Shown: positions 14,373 through 21,711 of the stretch, one piece after another | Layout: every line of letters begins with the position of its first letter | How positions within the stretch are numbered: position 1 is the first letter of the stretch | NCBI GenBank assembly: GCA_038227875.1 | Contig: JBBRPR010000043.1 | Span: 1-64,000 of the forward strand | DNA length: 64,000 nt | Origin: Planctomycetota bacterium | GTDB taxonomy: Bacteria > Planctomycetota > SZUA-567 > H5-PLA8 | Reading direction: 5' to 3' | Notes under the pieces: model-generated | What the model saw: only the letters and a program-made list of their open reading frames with translations | Databases searched by the model: none | Told to the model about the DNA's origin: nothing | Translations under genes and position numbers: made by a program

Positions 14373-16106
14373 ATGCAAAAACAATACGGATTCGCACGCG
14401 TAGCGTGCATTGCTCTGGTTCTGGCGCTCGCTGGATTTTCATATGCGATTGCGACAGCCGGACGAAGCACCGAAGTAGCCACGGTGGCTGCGCGCACGGT
14501 GTCTTCCAACCTGAATTTCTCCAATCCGTTTGTCGATCCAACTTTGAAGTCGACGCTCGACCGCGACCTGGGTGATGCCGTCATCGGCAGCGCCGTGGTC
14601 CGCCGCGTCACCGCGACCGGCGGCGTGCGTCCGTACTCATTTACCTCGACGTCGGTGAGCACCAACTCGTCGCTGGGCCTCGACAGCAGTGGTCTCTTCC
14701 ACACCCTGCCCGTCACCCCAGCCTCGGGCACGCAGTTGACCACCTACGGTCCGCTGACGGGCACACCAGGCAACTTCCGCTTCAACGTTACGGTCGCCGA
14801 TAACTCGGGCACCAACGTTCCCAAGACCGAACCGTACCGCCTGTCGATTTTCTCCAATTCGACAACGGCGTTCCGCTTCGCCATCACCAGCCTGAGCAAC
14901 GCCACGCAATTCAACGAGTACGCTGACTACATTTCCACGATCAACGGTCATGGACCGCTGAGCTACACGGTGTCGAACGTGACGGCAGGTGGCACTTCCG
15001 CTGCCAGTCTCGAATCCCTCGGCCTGACCATCGGCAAGGACGGCCAGATCTTCGGCATCCCGCTGAAGGCTGGCGCGATCACTTTCACGGTGGTGGCCAA
15101 GGACAGCACCGGCGCGACGGCTTCACCCCGCACGGGTGTGGGTTCCAGCCAGACATTCACGATCAACGTCGCCGGCAACTCGGTGATTCAGGACGTCATT
15201 GTGGTCACCTCACTGACCTGCAGCGGCGATAGCGCCGTCGGCGGCAAGGACAAGATCTCCATCAGCGGCGTCTACAATCCGCTGCTCTTCAGCTCGATCG
15301 GCACGACGATCACGCTGCGCCTCAATGGCTATGTGATCACCGGCACGATCGGATCGCGGGGCAAGATCTCCAACCTGAGCCTGCAGGACTTCGCGGCCCG
15401 GGCCAAGGTTCCGACACTCAAGGGAACGGTTAACGGCAAGGGTCAGTTCAAGCTGCAGGTTTCGAACGAAAGCTTCGGGCGCAGTGGACTGCTCGGTACG
15501 ATCGTTTCGAACGTCAATGCCATGGTTGAAGTGCAGATCGGCACCAAGGTCGACGGCTTCAACGCCGTCTCGCTCAACAACAAGGGCCGCGGCACGAAGT
15601 TTGGACTGGGCTTCAAGCTGGGCCAGGCCAATAAGAAGTCGGGCCCGCTCAATGCCTCCCTCGGCGGTGCGTTTATCCTGACCTCCGTGGCCGGCAAGGA
15701 CGACACGAAGGGCGCCACCGGCGACTCCTTCAAGGTCGGTATTATCGCGGTTCCGCCCAGCGGCATCACCTTCGCTGGCGCAACCAAGGCGACGGTATCG
15801 GTGGGAACATCCTTCACTGATAGCCCGTCGGTCACGTCCAGCAAGGGTATCGTCAAGACGGGCCGCATCGACGCCAAGCAGGCCAACAAGGTCACGCGCC
15901 TGTCGCTCTCCGAAAAGGGCAAGGGTAGCTATCAGACCAGCTTCCTGGCCTCCTCGCAGACGGGCATCAAGCTCTCGTCGGCCGGTACTTCGACTGGCGT
16001 CCCGTACGCGACGGGAATCACGATCAACAGCACCACGCCGTTTGGCGGCGTCGGCTCCCTGTTGATCTTCCCGAAGGGTAAGGGTTACACCAGCGCTCAG
16101 AAGTAA
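14373..16106 (+). CDS. Secreted Ser/Thr/Gly-rich protein with putative Ig domains (surface protein, paralog 1)
   Basis: Signal peptide; ATGGVRPYSF, GLTIGKDGQIFGIPL..G.ITFTV.AKDS (putative Ig); followed by a terminator. Confidence 0.75.
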   Translation: MQKQYGFARVACIALVLALAGFSYAIATAGRSTEVATVAARTVSSNLNFSNPFVDPTLKSTLDRDLGDAVIGSAVVRRVTATGGVRPYSFTSTSVSTNSSLGLDSSGLFHTLPVTPASGTQLTTYGPLTGTPGNFRFNVTVADNSGTNVPKTEPYRLSIFSNSTTAFRFAITSLSNATQFNEYADYISTINGHGPLSYTVSNVTAGGTSAASLESLGLTIGKDGQIFGIPLKAGAITFTVVAKDSTGATASPRTGVGSSQTFTINVAGNSVIQDVIVVTSLTCSGDSAVGGKDKISISGVYNPLLFSSIGTTITLRLNGYVITGTIGSRGKISNLSLQDFAARAKVPTLKGTVNGKGQFKLQVSNESFGRSGLLGTIVSNVNAMVEVQIGTKVDGFNAVSLNNKGRGTKFGLGFKLGQANKKSGPLNASLGGAFILTSVAGKDDTKGATGDSFKVGIIAVPPSGITFAGATKATVSVGTSFTDSPSVTSSKGIVKTGRIDAKQANKVTRLSLSEKGKGSYQTSFLASSQTGIKLSSAGTSTGVPYATGITINSTTPFGGVGSLLIFPKGKGYTSAQK

Positions 16107-16402: not shown

Positions 16403-18292
16403 GTGTTACTCGCTAAGAGCCAGACCGTTCGGCGTGCTGTGATCCTGGGGCTGATCCTCGCCGTCGCCGGTTTCTGTTATGCCACCGGTACGAGTTACGC
16501 CACGGCCAGCCGTTCGACCGACGTGCCTGAAGCCGGGCCGCGGCTCGTGGGCAGCTCCAACCTGCGCTTCATGAATCCGCGTCTGCCCACCGGTGAATTC
16601 GATCTCGGTGACGCCACCTACGGATCGATGATCCAGCGTTACGTCACCGCCGCCGGCGGCGTGCGGCCGTACAAGTACGTCTCCCCCGATTTGTTGAGCA
16701 AGCTGGCCAACAATTCCAGCCTGTTCCTCGGGAACTCCGGTTACCTGTTTGGCTCCATCACCTCTAATACCCGTCCGCCGTTGGTCTTTTCCGTTACCCT
16801 GACGGACAGCACCGGTTCCCAGACTCGAAATCAGTCCGTGAACGGTACGTTCCGCATCGGCATTCAGCTCGGTGGTGCGCAGAGCTTCCGCTTCGCGGTC
16901 GACAACATCAACAACGGCCAGAAGGGCCTCAGCTACGCCGGAGCACTCGACACACTCGGCGGAGTGGGTACCGTGACCTACTCGGTGATCCCCAACACCC
17001 TGACCGTCAACGGCACGCCGCGCGGCACCAATGGCGCGCTGGAGACCCTCGGCCTCTCGCTCTCCGCCGACGGCACGATCAGCGGCAAGCCGCTGGAATC
17101 CGGACTCGTCAGCTTCAAGGCACACGCCACGGATACGCTGAAGCGCACCGCCAACGACCGCACCAACACGGTGCCCGACCAGGTTGTTGCGTTCAATATT
17201 GAAGACAACGCCATCGCCTCGACCGATTACACGACGCTCAACTGCACCGTCCGCGGCGACCTGGGCGCCACCAACAAGGACACGATCAAGTTCAACGGCC
17301 TGATCAACATGACCGGCAACGCCATCAACTCGCTGCGCTTCACGACGTTCCAGTTCCGCCTGGGCGCCTACAACGTCACCGGCCGGGTGGACATCAGCGG
17401 CAACGTGGTGAACATCAAGCAGAACACGCTCAAGCTTCCCGACGGCAGCCAGTTCAAGGCGAAGATCGACGCTCACAAGGGCACGCTCTCCGGTTCCTTG
17501 AGCAAAGCCACCGTCGCCAAGCTGCTCAACGGCGCCAGCATCACCGACCGCAGCACGTCGCGCCTGGGCATGCAGTTCGTGCTCTCCAACAACGTCGTTT
17601 GCGCCGATACGCTGGAATTCGCTTCGCGCCGCAAGGGCAACAAGATCGCGCTGGATTACAACATGAGCCGGACGGGCAGACCGCTGGGCGGCACCTTCCA
17701 GATCCTCACTGTTGTCGGCAAGGACGGCACCACGATCAGCGGCACCCGCGGTGACGCCTGGAACGCCAAGTTCCTGATGATTCCGCGCTTCGGCATCGAC
17801 ACCAATCCCGGTCTCGACTCGCTTTCGTCGATCACCGTCCGCATCGGCCAGAACTTCGTCCAGAAGATTCCTGCCAACGCATTCACCAGCAACAAGAGCG
17901 GGAGCATCAGCCTGCTGAAGCCGGCGACCAAGGGCGAACAGGTCGCCAAGTTCAAGCTCGATGGCCGCAAGTTCGTCGGCGAAGTCCAGACGTTCGTGCT
18001 CGGCTCGACGCGCACCTTCATCTCGCCGGCCGTAGACGTGGTCAATCCGGCCTCGCCTGCCGGCAATGGCGCCATCCCGATCAGCAGCTTTGTGACTACC
18101 GGCTTCGATCTGGGAATCGACCTGGCCCGCACCGGCAACAACGCCAGCCTCACCGGCGAATACGGCAAGCTGGTCATCGGCGTGCCCAACCAGAAGGCCT
18201 GGGTCGACAACATCGGCAAGGCCAGCCGCGGCTTCCAGATTCCCGCCGCGCCACAGCCCGTTCCGAACAACAACTTCCGCTTGGATAAGTAA
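16403..18292 (+). CDS. Secreted protein with putative Ig domains (surface protein, paralog 2)
   Basis: GTG start after AAGGAG; signal peptide; shares DLGDA..GS, AGGVRPY, FRFA and LE.LGL..S.DG.I.G.PL motifs with 14373. Confidence 0.75.
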   Translation: MLLAKSQTVRRAVILGLILAVAGFCYATGTSYATASRSTDVPEAGPRLVGSSNLRFMNPRLPTGEFDLGDATYGSMIQRYVTAAGGVRPYKYVSPDLLSKLANNSSLFLGNSGYLFGSITSNTRPPLVFSVTLTDSTGSQTRNQSVNGTFRIGIQLGGAQSFRFAVDNINNGQKGLSYAGALDTLGGVGTVTYSVIPNTLTVNGTPRGTNGALETLGLSLSADGTISGKPLESGLVSFKAHATDTLKRTANDRTNTVPDQVVAFNIEDNAIASTDYTTLNCTVRGDLGATNKDTIKFNGLINMTGNAINSLRFTTFQFRLGAYNVTGRVDISGNVVNIKQNTLKLPDGSQFKAKIDAHKGTLSGSLSKATVAKLLNGASITDRSTSRLGMQFVLSNNVVCADTLEFASRRKGNKIALDYNMSRTGRPLGGTFQILTVVGKDGTTISGTRGDAWNAKFLMIPRFGIDTNPGLDSLSSITVRIGQNFVQKIPANAFTSNKSGSISLLKPATKGEQVAKFKLDGRKFVGEVQTFVLGSTRTFISPAVDVVNPASPAGNGAIPISSFVTTGFDLGIDLARTGNNASLTGEYGKLVIGVPNQKAWVDNIGKASRGFQIPAAPQPVPNNNFRLDK

Positions 18293-18313: not shown

Positions 18314-18345
18314 AAAAACTCCCCGCGCAAGCGGGGAGTTTTTTT
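18314..18345. terminator. Bidirectional rho-independent terminator
   Basis: aaaaactccccgc-gcaa-gcggggagttttttt between convergent genes. Confidence 0.9.
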
Positions 18346-18380: not shown

Positions 18381-19850
18381 TCAAGCCTTATTCCACCCCT
18401 TCACGATATTCTCCGTGGTGAGCTGTGCGTAGAGCTCCTCGATCTGCTCGCGGGAATTGGAGACCCGAATGTCGCGCTCCAGGCTGGTCTTCCGGTTGGG
18501 GGAGAAGTCAGTGAAGTGGACCACGAAGCCGGGATAGTTGCTGCCTTCGCCTTCCTTGTTCGTCTTCCACATCACGAATTTGCGAACCATTGTCTGGCCC
18601 TTCAGCACTTTGGTGTAGACCTCGCGCTTCAGGACTTCACTCTTGGGCAGTGAAAGCTTGCGCGCATCGGCTTCCAGCATGCGCACTTCGACCAGGTCGG
18701 AGACCTGCTTGATGCGCAGGTCCGCGGGCTTGACCTGCTTGTCTTCGCGCCGGCGCACGAACTGCGGCGAGATCACGCTGACCAGCGGCAGGCGGCGGAT
18801 CACGTTGTACTTCTTCGCCTTGCTGTCGTAATCGAGGACCATGCGGTCGATCGAACTGCCGCGCGTGGTCTGCGAAATCAGATCCAGGCAGCTCATTTCA
18901 ATCACCCATTCGGGGCGGACCATTTCATACGCGACGTGATCGGGATTGACTTCGGCGTACTCGCTTTCGACCACGGTGTCCTTCAGGTCTGAATAAAACG
19001 AGCGGCGGTCTTCGTCGGAAAAGCCACCGCCGACGCGCGCGAAGAGATGAAACGTCCCGTCGTCGCGCATCAGCGCCACGAGCATGTCGTGGAGCATGCC
19101 TTTGCGTTCGTCGGTCGATTCAGTAAACCCCACGACCACGGCGTCCATGTTGTGCCGCGGTTTGATCTTGAACATGCCGGCCGTGTCGCTGCGCGCGACC
19201 AGGCCTTCGTCGCCGCCGGTCTCGACCCACTGTTCGAATTTCTTCTCGATCTCCGCCGTGGACTTGGCGAAAATCGCTTCGACCGGCGTCACACGCTCGC
19301 CGCCGTCGAAGATCTTCCGGATGCGCTTCCAGGTCTCGGGAAACGCGGAGACGACCGGCTTGTCGTCGGTCTCGAGCAGATCGAAGACCGCGAAGCGCAG
19401 GCTGCCCAGGTCCTCCTTGCTCTCCGGCTGGCGCGCGACGCGGCTGACGTCGTGAACGCGCGCGCGTTTGCCGTCACTGCGCTGCACGTACATTTCACCC
19501 GCGACCAGCGCCGCTTTAACGCCGGCCTTGTTGAGCAGTTCCGCCGCTTCGTTGATGAACGGCAGACCGACGCGGACGGTGCCGCCGGGGTTAACGGTGA
19601 TCGCCTGCTTGCCGTCGTAGACCAGCACCGTGAACTCGCCGTCGACCTTGCGGCTGACGTGGTACTCGCCTTCCGGCAACTTCTTTTTGATGTCGTCCTT
19701 GCCCAGTGCCATCATGCGCGAGCCGGAGAGGCGGCGGTATTCCTGAGCGCGGCGGTGGGAGGTTGGATCGGAAAGCTCCAGCGCGCTGCCGACAGCGTAG
19801 TCGCCGAACTTCGTCTCCAGGCGGCTCTTATTGATGTTCAACGTTACCAT
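18381..19850 (-). CDS. Minimal ATP-dependent DNA ligase (adenylation and OB domains) with a C-terminal WGR-like domain
   Basis: Motif I SRKVDGE, III AGEMYV, IIIa FAVFDLL, IV EGLVAR, V FKIKP, OB-fold VGGGFSD, VI PQFVRRREDK. Confidence 0.85.
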   Translation of the reverse strand: MVTLNINKSRLETKFGDYAVGSALELSDPTSHRRAQEYRRLSGSRMMALGKDDIKKKLPEGEYHVSRKVDGEFTVLVYDGKQAITVNPGGTVRVGLPFINEAAELLNKAGVKAALVAGEMYVQRSDGKRARVHDVSRVARQPESKEDLGSLRFAVFDLLETDDKPVVSAFPETWKRIRKIFDGGERVTPVEAIFAKSTAEIEKKFEQWVETGGDEGLVARSDTAGMFKIKPRHNMDAVVVGFTESTDERKGMLHDMLVALMRDDGTFHLFARVGGGFSDEDRRSFYSDLKDTVVESEYAEVNPDHVAYEMVRPEWVIEMSCLDLISQTTRGSSIDRMVLDYDSKAKKYNVIRRLPLVSVISPQFVRRREDKQVKPADLRIKQVSDLVEVRMLEADARKLSLPKSEVLKREVYTKVLKGQTMVRKFVMWKTNKEGEGSNYPGFVVHFTDFSPNRKTSLERDIRVSNSREQIEELYAQLTTENIVKGWNKA

Positions 19851-19895
19851 GAGAACCTCAGGGGCCAGGGTAAGGGGTCAGAGTGGGAAGTGTGC

Positions 19896-20840
19896 TCAGC
19901 TCTTCTTGCGTCCTTTTTTCGGCGCGGGCTTTTTCTCTTCGGACTTTTCGGGCTCCGCCGGAGTTTCTTCGACGACCTCGGCCTTTACTTTTTTCAATTT
20001 CTTCGCCGGAACATCCGCGGGCTTCTCCGCTGCTTTTTCAGCTTTTACCGGCAGCGCGGGAGCCGCAGGTTCCGGCGGCTTTTCAGCCACGGGCGCGGCC
20101 GGTGCAGCGAGCGGAGCGGGTGGGGCCGGCGGTGCGGCGATCGGCTCCGGCGCCTTCAATTCCATGTTGGAGAGATGCAGGATCAGGCAGTACTTTTCGC
20201 CCTGCGTGCGCCCTTCCAGAAAGCCGCGGTACGACGTGCCGCCGCGCTGAAAGACCAGCGGCAGATTCGATTTCGGCCCCGCGCCCATCAACATCAGGCT
20301 CTGCTTCTCTTCCAGATCCTTGGCCATCGCGAAAAGGAAGTCGAAGGTCAGGCCGTTGACGTGAACAATCTGCAGCTTCGTCGCGAAGACGAATTTGTTG
20401 AAGACTTCACTCTTCTTCATCAGCTTGCCCGACCACTTCAGCGGCGTTTCCGTGGCGGTGTTCGGCGGCAGCACTTTGCGCGGTCGGCGTTCTTTCTCGG
20501 TGCCGTCGGGATTGCGGACGATCTCCCACTCCTGAACCTTGTGGACGATCTTCTTGTCGGCGTCGATGTACACCCGCGACGTGTCGCTCAGGAAACGGCC
20601 GTAGCTTTCGAAGTCGATTTCCGGATCGCCCTTGAGCAGCAGCTCCGACACTTTCTCGAGCGCACCGGCCTGCTTGATCAGCTCATCGCAATCGCGATCG
20701 ATGGTGCAACGCAGGATGCGGAAGTTCGACGCCTGCCGCCCCTTCTCATCCAGCCACCGCACGCGCAGCGGCGTGCGCACCGTCTCCGTATTGACGATGG
20801 CATCGCGATTGTTGCTGTTGGCGAGATTGATCGAGCCCAT
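19896..20840 (-). CDS. Hypothetical protein, possibly Ku-like, with a Pro/Ala/Lys-rich tail
   Basis: AGGAG RBS; about 230 aa globular core, then a basic low-complexity tail (PAKKLKKVK...KKPAPKKGRKKS). The ORF is solid; the Ku assignment is inference. Confidence 0.6.
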   Translation of the reverse strand: MGSINLANSNNRDAIVNTETVRTPLRVRWLDEKGRQASNFRILRCTIDRDCDELIKQAGALEKVSELLLKGDPEIDFESYGRFLSDTSRVYIDADKKIVHKVQEWEIVRNPDGTEKERRPRKVLPPNTATETPLKWSGKLMKKSEVFNKFVFATKLQIVHVNGLTFDFLFAMAKDLEEKQSLMLMGAGPKSNLPLVFQRGGTSYRGFLEGRTQGEKYCLILHLSNMELKAPEPIAAPPAPPAPLAAPAAPVAEKPPEPAAPALPVKAEKAAEKPADVPAKKLKKVKAEVVEETPAEPEKSEEKKPAPKKGRKKS

Positions 20841-20892
20841 TTTAACTCCTGGGGACTGAGTCCGGGGTCTTGGGACCGGGGAACAACCGCAC

Positions 20893-21510
20893 TCACATCA
20901 TTCCAAAGTCCAACGATTCGTCTTCGCCTTCGGCTGCTTCGGTATCGTCTTCCACGGGCGCCGCCGCCTGTTCCAAACCTACGAAATGAATCGACGTCGG
21001 CTGACCCACGCACATGAAGACCGTGCCGTCCTGTCCGGCGAGCAGGAAGCCGACGTCCGCCTCCAGTCCGCCGCGGAAACTATAGGGGAACGAGAAGATC
21101 GTCCCTTTCTTGAGCTCCGCGGCCAGCGGCGCGAGATCGCCCTCGCAGCGCAGCACGTAGACGCCTTTGATGTTGTGCGAGAGGTAATCTTCGAGTGTCG
21201 CGAGCTTGGTCAGCGGCACCGGCGCACCGTAGGTTGACTGCACCGGCGTGATGGTCCGGCCTTCGGGGTCGACGGGCTGCAGCTTGGTTTTGTCGAGCCA
21301 CAAACCATCGGACGAAAGATACGCAAACGAGCTCCCGCCCTGTCCGACGATGGTGCGGCCGTCGTCGGCGAGGGTGGCCAGCTGGCATTTGCGGCTCTTG
21401 CCGTCGAGCGCTTCGACATCGACGAAGCCGTAAAGCTTCGTGCGGTCGACCTTGTCGGGACTGCAGACAAAGTCCGTGCCGTTGAACTGAAACGTCAGAG
21501 CTCTCGCCAT
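20893..21510 (-). CDS. Hypothetical protein, possibly Ku-like, with an acidic C-terminus
   Basis: 205 aa from MARALTF; beta-rich; ends EDDTEAAEGEDESLDFGMM; first gene of the ligase operon. Confidence 0.6.
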   Translation of the reverse strand: MARALTFQFNGTDFVCSPDKVDRTKLYGFVDVEALDGKSRKCQLATLADDGRTIVGQGGSSFAYLSSDGLWLDKTKLQPVDPEGRTITPVQSTYGAPVPLTKLATLEDYLSHNIKGVYVLRCEGDLAPLAAELKKGTIFSFPYSFRGGLEADVGFLLAGQDGTVFMCVGQPTSIHFVGLEQAAAPVEDDTEAAEGEDESLDFGMM

Positions 21511-21711
21511 ATCCGCACCCCAATTTATAGGTTGTAGTGTCAAAACATAACAGAGCGCCGTCGAACGGGCAAGAAGGCTTGGCGAGCGGGCACTCACATC
21601 ACAAATTGACCACCCGCCGCTCAGAAACACCATCTAATTGGCCAGCGCGCCTATTCTCAATCCCCTTCGCATCTGATTAACTGAAAACTTCATGACCGGA
21701 GAACCTCAACA

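Follow-up and report, generated by a model that had tools for sequence, protein, structure and literature searches.

The 64,000-nucleotide stretch analysed here, hereafter the window (positions 1 to 64,000 of contig JBBRPR010000043.1, from a Planctomycetota bacterium), contains an operon of three co-oriented genes, located on the minus strand and read in the order A, B, ligase. The operon probably constitutes a self-contained module for the joining or sealing of DNA ends, made up of a Ku-like clamp, formed by proteins A and B, and of a ligase. Gene A (20893..21510), gene B (19896..20840) and the ligase gene (18381..19850), the last two being complete open reading frames (ORFs), encode proteins of 205, 314 and 489 amino acids (aa), separated by gaps of 52 nt between A and B and of 45 nt between B and the ligase. 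This layout agrees with the original prediction made for this DNA, which had pointed to three co-oriented genes spaced by about 45-50 bp. The longest ORF of gene A, 20893-21633, starts 41 codons upstream of the sequence MARALTF; since 57 homologues align from a MARALTF-type start, the start at 21510 was adopted.

Two Ku-like proteins and their predicted pairing

Protein A is acidic (isoelectric point, pI, 4.5). Its barrel core is interrupted by a long insert (residues ~21-105), and the protein closes with an acidic C-terminal tail (residues 179-205; 20896..20976, minus strand), which has a net charge of -10 and ends in D-F-x-M-M. Across 58 sequences, D201 and F202 at the tip of the tail never vary, and M204 and M205 hardly or not at all; the tail is a candidate docking peptide. 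Mean column identity is 68%, and R146, G147, G148 and F155 are invariant.

Protein B is basic (pI 9.3). Its Ku-like core (residues 1-232; 20145..20840, minus strand) includes an insert at residues ~21-137, containing two helices, and is followed by a basic, Pro/Ala/Lys-rich tail (residues 233-314 and stop codon; 19896..20144, minus strand; pI 9.5) ending in KKGRKKS. R199 and G200 are nearly invariant, while F207 is invariant. The tail is found in a subset of the homologues, including the subclade of the window; in the alignment, most of the others end near residue 235-245. Basic tails are carried by B in some members and by the ligase in others. Lys-rich C-terminal extensions, which the B tail resembles, are reported for bacterial Ku in three published studies (PMC9638933, PMC4889933, PMC6379672).

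Comparison of the two proteins with Pfam, NCBIfam, PADLOC and PHROGs gave no match (at E<=1 for Pfam and NCBIfam), and every name given to their relatives by the source databases is 'hypothetical protein'. Both families are nevertheless large. For A, 536 relatives were retrieved by a word-indexed search, and 748 clusters at 50% identity by an exhaustive profile search of 1.84 billion representatives, in which all of the matches listed, the best 150, were family members. For B, 2285 matches were obtained among 8000 candidates scored.

Structure models were built with AlphaFold2 from 58-row alignments. Mean pLDDT was 67.9 for A and 66.5 for B, with values mostly between 80 and 95 in the barrels and poor ones in the inserts. 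Foldseek comparison of the A model against the PDB revealed bacterial Ku as the first match (9vnq, E 8.5e-5), followed by 9i91 and 8v53; the top five rows were all bacterial Ku, and Ku70/80 entries came after them. An independent structure search, performed with VIA-align, gave for A a Z of 11.4 both to 9vnq (Bacillus subtilis Ku; rmsd 2.8, 101 aligned residues) and to 9i91 (Mycobacterium tuberculosis Ku); Ku70/80 (9.7), INTS13/14 (9.5) and SPOC domains (8.5-9.4) followed, after which Z fell below 4. For B, Foldseek returned 39 matches at E<=1e-3, the best being M. tuberculosis Ku (9i91, E 7.8e-6), and all of the matches listed were Ku chains or complexes. The corresponding VIA-align scores were 11.9 to 9i91 (rmsd 4.2, 156 aligned residues), 11.5 to Ku80 and 11.4 to 9vnq. 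In addition, when B was compared with the viral library BFVD, the single match at E<=1e-3 was a mycobacteriophage Ku.

Ku was thus ranked first in all five structure searches (Foldseek and VIA-align for both proteins, BFVD for B), in line with the original prediction, in which the resemblance of A and B to Ku had been judged by eye. On the basis of these models, both proteins appear to belong to the Ku/SPOC barrel superfold, with Ku as the best and longest match. The margin of Ku over SPOC is small in terms of Z, since SPOC and INTS13/14 barrels reach 8.5-10.8. Together with the lack of sequence similarity between A or B and Ku, and with the peptide-like, conserved tail of A, this would also suit a different arrangement, in which A and B are SPOC-like adaptors binding proteins or peptides, or a scaffold which does not form a ring, and the ligase closes nicks or works on RNA, without any clamp on DNA ends. 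Such an arrangement is judged very unlikely in view of the constant first rank of Ku and of the extent of the alignments, B being aligned to Ku over 144-156 residues and to SPOC domains (Z 10.2-10.8) over 107-113. Moreover, SPOC domains, 123-169 residues long, cannot accommodate the inserts of A (~85 residues) or B (~117 residues), from which the predicted dimer interface is formed, and the link to an enzyme of DNA ligase type, together with the basic tails, fits DNA as the substrate.

The pairing of A with B, as a heterodimer, was also part of the original prediction. Complex prediction was performed on A and residues 1-235 of B, each with its alignment, along with three controls. The median score was 0.68 for A+B versus 0.01 for the best control, a mark which, in the calibration of the tool, 116 of 157 solved complexes attained, as did 2 of 215 mismatched pairs. 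The A+B runs had 44% or more of their contacts in common, and partner pLDDT was at least 69. The interface includes 378 contacts, 289 of them confident, and is made by residues 23-82 of A and residues 21-45 and 87-111 of B, in addition to the barrel edges; these segments correspond to the inserts which are disordered, or of low confidence, when the proteins are modelled singly. In the complex, predicted from the two proteins alone, the interface resembles what would be expected from an intertwined dimer of Ku type. The pI values of the two proteins (4.5 and 9.3) indicate complementary charges, suited to a pair.

The original prediction had further proposed that a motif shared by the two proteins, F-x(0-1)-RGG-x(3-5)-GFL, indicates ancient paralogy. 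The motif itself is real and conserved: the RGG...GFL strings, along with the other segments of A and B quoted at that time, are present and rank, within each family, among the positions that vary least, and in both models the strings are located at the turn preceding the last two strands of the barrel. Paralogy, by contrast, did not find support in the sequences. Comparison of the two family profiles by hhalign revealed no significant similarity (probability 0.46%), so the motif cannot be taken as statistical evidence for it. Common descent of A and B is made plausible by the fold, while sequence provides no proof.

The ligase

The third protein is composed of an N-terminal region of ~50 aa, a nucleotidyltransferase (NTase) domain (residues ~51-245), an oligonucleotide-binding (OB) domain (residues 250-371) and a C-terminal module. 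The original prediction had recognised in it the motif set of ATP-dependent ligases, and several results concur. Motif I, S66-x-K68-x-D70-G71-E72, is at least 95% conserved in 73 aligned family members; the strings FAVFDLL, EGLVAR, FKIKP and RRREDK presumably represent motifs III, IV, V and VI. The OB domain matches PF04679 (E 3.4e-8), the only Pfam domain found. The nearest relatives of solved structure in the PDB are archaeal DNA ligases (3rr5, E 5.9e-12), and among PHROGs the protein matches phrog_114, ATP-dependent DNA ligase (E 4.7e-20). The nearest NCBIfam model is the domain TIGR02779, of ligases that serve non-homologous end joining (NHEJ), at 55.3 bits, far under its cut-off of 227.75. 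Pfam and NCBIfam searches found neither the polymerase (POL) nor the phosphoesterase (PE) domain, which had likewise been expected to be missing from this ligase, in comparison with LigD.

The C-terminal module (residues 385-489; 18384..18698, minus strand) is a conserved, basic region of ~100 aa (pI 9.4), in which the strings VRK, TDFSPxR and KGW are maintained throughout the 73 aligned rows, including one relative devoid of the NTase domain, described below. No Pfam family corresponds to it, and an Atlas feature search returned only 'hypothetical protein' clusters, with scores up to 0.90.

Distribution, variants and genomic context

The gene neighborhood was evaluated by scanning genomes, one for each species, for relatives of B. 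At least 430 stretches were found, of which the best 80 were kept, and their content was determined by HMM search for A and B and by phmmer for the ligase. The complete set A-B-ligase, in that order and on one strand, is present in 64 of the 80 loci, and is also found on longer metagenome contigs. In the remaining ones, B is accompanied by the ligase and not by a nearby A (6 loci), by A and not by a nearby ligase (5 loci), or by neither (2 loci), while in 3 loci the A side is cut by the end of the contig, one of them also being without the ligase. The cassette persists, with altered accessories, in relatives having 36-44% identity to B; conservation of the triad had been proposed as a check, and, like the other computational checks carried out, it came out in favor of the original prediction.

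Loci with an incomplete set might indicate that A and B form separate homodimeric rings, one, for example, recruiting the ligase and the other bridging ends. B is found without A nearby in 8 of 80 loci, although the rest of those genomes was not searched for A, and canonical bacterial Ku is a homodimer. A Pirellulaceae-type subclade of B (L046, L039, L053 and L058; support 100 in a quick tree) is devoid of a ligase over a distance of 6 kb, and in two of the four members A is missing nearby as well; the subclade may represent a decaying or repurposed branch. Separate rings nevertheless seem highly improbable when set against the strong heterodimer prediction, the opposite pI values and the adjacency and common orientation of A and B in most loci.

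Clustering of 1453 ORFs flanking the 80 loci revealed no additional gene recurrently associated with the cassette, nor was any XRCC4- or XLF-like gene seen nearby. The commonest flanking cluster was composed of Ser/Thr kinases, found at 17 of 80 loci and in 12 cases located downstream on the same strand, which may simply reflect the abundance of kinases in Planctomycetota.

The organization of the cassette varies among its members. Among the longer relatives of B (413-533 aa, P0392-P0456), 64 of 67 carry, according to precomputed annotation, a C-terminal SAM domain (PF00536/PF07647) placed after a charged linker; the domain was confirmed by a separate scan in all three SAM-annotated proteins checked. 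Polymerisation of SAM domains could bridge clamps. A metagenome scan seeded with one of the SAM-fused proteins returned mostly ordinary B loci.

Other variants were observed among the distant relatives. In two genomes, G289 (L099:6763-13613) and G162 (L100, L101 and L102), A and B are followed by a fusion protein of ~1041 aa, in which the ligase and its C-terminal module are joined to a middle region matching no family and to an AAA+ ATPase (PF00004, 136.8 bits, with lid domain). In both, a large serine recombinase comes after the cassette, and in G162 three copies of the cassette are found on short contigs, the pattern expected of a repeated mobile element. In a single further genome, G012 (L098:8837-13511), genes for MoxR (AAA_5), DUF5682 and VWA_CoxE proteins are located directly upstream of the cassette and co-oriented with it; as eukaryotic Ku subunits carry vWA domains, the adjacency of VWA_CoxE is of interest. 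Finally, in G273 (L103:6027-6740) the relative of the ligase is reduced to 238 aa, the NTase domain being lost and the C-terminal module kept. Judging from its sequence, this protein is a catalytically dead partner, and since the module is retained in it, the link with the A-B pair would reside in the module.

According to record labels, the loci are mostly from Planctomycetota (Pirellulaceae, Gemmataceae, Planctomycetaceae and Phycisphaerae) and extend to seven other phyla, with members in Myxococcota, Verrucomicrobiota, Cyanobacteriota (Hormoscilla, Oscillatoria) and Leptospiraceae, one in Thermoanaerobaculia, one in Actinomycetes and three in Pseudomonadota bins. Labels of metagenome-assembled genomes can be wrong, which makes the number of transfers uncertain. 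A quick maximum-likelihood tree, constructed for B, keeps the planctomycete families largely intact, while sequences from other phyla nest in one supported set of 39 rows together with Gemmataceae, Phycisphaerae and the clade of the window. In a sample of the phylum, B matches at E<=0.001 were found in 12 of 301 genomes, 7 of them strong, and a strong match was present in one of seven other genomes sampled from the family to which the window belongs.

This patchy distribution, together with the nesting of other phyla among Planctomycetota, raises the question of whether the same Ku-like clamp and ligase have mobile or foreign DNA, and not breaks in the chromosome, as their target. Such a role might consist in the protection or circularisation of the linear ends that an integrative element or a phage presents, or in defence, or counter-defence, involving linear invaders. 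The AAA+-fused ligase, the serine recombinase, the three copies of the cassette in one genome and its position right after the MoxR(AAA_5)-DUF5682-VWA_CoxE genes in another would all be in keeping with it, as would the best viral fold match of B being a phage Ku; phage-encoded Ku proteins which borrow the ligase of the host are known from mycobacteriophages Corndog and Omega. Against this, PADLOC-DB 2.0 contains no family matching A, B or the ligase (E<=1), and no relatives of B were found in 50,697 INPHARED phage records, in 72,556 PLSDB plasmids or in a pattern scan of IMG/VR, the latter being sensitive to close relatives only. Similarly, the operon shows no shift in GC content relative to its flanks, and in the window no integrase is located near it; its neighbors are ordinary chromosomal genes, encoding a GH35 beta-galactosidase, a SurA-like peptidyl-prolyl isomerase, an ABC-F ATPase, a sugar transferase and two large secreted-looking proteins. 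Because of this housekeeping context, of the lack of phage and plasmid relatives and of a B tree which largely follows families inside Planctomycetota, chromosomal repair is favored, and a role on mobile DNA is considered a minor, though real, possibility.

The operon is delimited by a hairpin (18314..18343, assigned to neither strand) of 13 pairs, 7 of them G-C, flanked by AAAAA and TTTTT, with the features of a bidirectional intrinsic terminator. It is located between the stop codon of the ligase gene and a convergent gene on the plus strand, closing both, and corresponds to the one strong terminator described in the original prediction. Just downstream of the operon, on the opposite strand, the two secreted-looking proteins, of 577 and 629 aa, are encoded in tandem (14373-16106 and 16403-18292, plus strand); their N-terminal regions are similar to each other, and neither protein matches a Pfam family. 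Metatranscriptome contigs of 151-237 nt, with at least 99% identity and derived from two libraries of different studies, cover positions 19418-19787 only, inside the ligase gene; DNA carry-over is possible for them, and they bear neither on A and B nor on co-transcription.

Proposed function and comparison with known systems

In the proposed mechanism, A and B would intertwine through their inserts into a heterodimer, most likely encircling double-stranded DNA ends as Ku does. B would supply a basic surface, to which, in the clade of the window, the Pro/Ala/Lys tail may add further affinity for DNA. The ligase would be brought to the clamped ends by its basic C-terminal module, in contact either with the ring or with the acidic D-F-x-M-M tail of A, whose hydrophobic tip is proposed to dock the module; the tails of SSB and the C-termini of Ku recruit partners in a comparable way. 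The ligase would then seal compatible ends. The cellular role would be double-strand break repair, carried out beside a canonical Ku-ligase pair, which is encoded in the same genome by a separate operon (G000 contig C21, L015:442-2355, plus strand), where a gene for a 341-aa ATP-dependent ligase (PF01068) is directly followed by one for a PF02735 Ku of 294 aa whose tail is Lys-rich. Since this operon is present too, the cell would have two Ku-type systems.

Several observations weigh against the interpretation of A and B as a clamp on DNA ends. Pfam model PF02735, which finds the canonical Ku of the same genome at 163 bits, matches neither protein; alignment of each of them to that Ku by hhalign gave a probability below 1%, and searches of PDB sequences with the two profiles (hmmsearch) returned chance matches only (E 0.68 and 0.91). 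The models are of moderate quality, as judged from the mean pLDDT values given above, with TM-scores to Ku of 0.35-0.48; the inserts expected to form the ring have low confidence in the monomers, and SPOC barrels, which bind peptides and not DNA, are within ~1-2 Z units of Ku. A warning issued for the prediction tool implies that the favorable A+B result may partly echo the memory of solved Ku dimers retained by the model. Sixteen of the 80 loci do not contain the full triad, so that its parts are not strictly obligate neighbors. Furthermore, as the operon encodes neither a polymerase nor a nuclease, it would need help from elsewhere to join any but compatible ends. Lastly, given that a canonical ligase-Ku operon is already present, a reason for keeping a second system has to be sought.

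Canonical Ku was evaluated in the same phylum sample, in which PF02735 is present in 40 of 301 genomes. Among the seven genomes where B is strongly matched, it was found in that of the window only; five of the other six, which are 89-96% complete, were searched and gave no match. Numbers of this size do not allow redundancy to be distinguished from replacement. Tandem pairs of canonical PF02735 genes were observed in five sampled Planctomycetota genomes, G172 (C68:45526-46894), G276, G079, G054 and G214, and recall the Ku3-Ku4 pair of Sinorhizobium.

A more far-reaching interpretation, speculative and rather unlikely, is that A and B represent a separate ancient Ku lineage, whose heterodimeric state arose in bacteria, with an acidic, recruiting subunit, a basic, DNA-gripping subunit and a dedicated minimal ligase docked by its C-terminal module. 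If so, a division of labor of eukaryotic type, based on two unlike Ku subunits and on a ligase devoid of end-processing domains, would exist in prokaryotes. The AAA+ motor of some relatives could then pull the trapped ring off sealed DNA, as p97 is reported to act on Ku80, and the SAM domain of others could polymerise and bridge ends.

The combination of Ku with an ATP-dependent ligase is of a known kind, and the idea of a bacterial Ku heterodimer has a precedent in the published account of Ku3-Ku4 (PMC6379672). The new elements are a large pair of families which no sequence model connects to Ku, the asymmetry between an acidic and a basic subunit, a minimal ligase with a conserved module of its own, and the AAA+, SAM and NTase-less variants. 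The original prediction had presented the three genes as a candidate undescribed module; sequence libraries indeed provide no family name, and no description of the A/B family was found in the literature searched. Similarly, in its main text a 2025 survey of Ku evolution makes no mention of Planctomycetes (PMC11936186).

The families are of considerable size, A comprising 748 clusters and B no fewer than 430 species-level loci, and surveys of the distribution of bacterial end joining count PF02735 matches. If A and B do clamp ends, current estimates of NHEJ-capable bacteria would be too low, and both the census of bacterial end joining and its composition as given in textbooks would change. 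In that case the operon would also provide genome engineering with a compact end-joining kit of three genes, and would represent a natural experiment in which the tasks of the Ku ring are split between two subunits.

Among known systems, SPOC domains and the Integrator subunits INTS13-INTS14 share the barrel superfold of A and B, and INTS13/14 is likewise a heterodimer of Ku-like barrels, but these are eukaryotic binders of peptides and proteins which have no ligase partner, and SPOC domains do not have the inserts which form the A-B interface. Phage Ku proteins and end binders of Gam type, such as Mu Gam, provide a second term of comparison. Here a Ku fold serves a mobile genome in holding or protecting linear ends, which fits the relatives of the cassette located beside recombinases; unlike phage Ku, the A/B family was not found in the phage, plasmid and viral-contig collections searched, and the cassette encodes its own ligase.

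Bacterial end joining is taught as the work of a Ku homodimer and LigD. The corresponding proteins (PF02735 Ku, from M. tuberculosis and B. subtilis; 9i91, 9vnq, 8v53) are those which A and B match best in structure, and further likenesses are the size of ~200-300 aa, the adjacent gene for an ATP-dependent ligase and the presence of a Lys-rich C-terminal tail on one subunit. The differences are that A and B have no detectable sequence similarity to Ku, that two unlike subunits replace a single one, and that the tail of A is acidic and hydrophobic at its tip. Unlike LigD, the ligase of the window has no POL and PE domains, and has an unnamed C-terminal module of its own.

Another parallel is offered by the Ku3-Ku4 pair of Sinorhizobium meliloti, which acts with LigD4 and is proposed on genetic grounds to be a bacterial Ku heterodimer (PMC6379672). 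As described there, ku3 and ku4 share an operon and are each required for the same pathway, only one of the two proteins carries Lys-rich repeats, and the pair coexists in the same cell with a canonical homodimeric Ku pathway. Two different Ku-type genes in an operon, one Lys-rich tail and a canonical Ku alongside are all features of the system described here as well. Unlike A and B, Ku3 and Ku4 are ordinary PF02735 proteins working with a full three-domain LigD, in place of which A and B use a minimal ligase.

The remaining comparison is with eukaryotic Ku70/Ku80 and DNA ligase IV. A and B are without the vWA domain, the Ku C-terminal helical arm and the SAP domain of Ku70/Ku80, as evaluated by Pfam and by protein length, which leaves no room for them: both barrels start at residue 1-5, and a vWA match was obtained for neither. 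The C-terminal module of the ligase, in turn, is not the BRCT pair of DNA ligase IV. The overall plan is, however, similar. Ku70/80 chains are among the top fold matches of both proteins, and in each system two diverged Ku-barrel subunits, as predicted for A and B, are combined with a separate ligase devoid of polymerase and nuclease domains. DNA ligase IV is recruited through a non-catalytic C-terminal region, and the C-terminal module would play the corresponding part in the ligase of the window.

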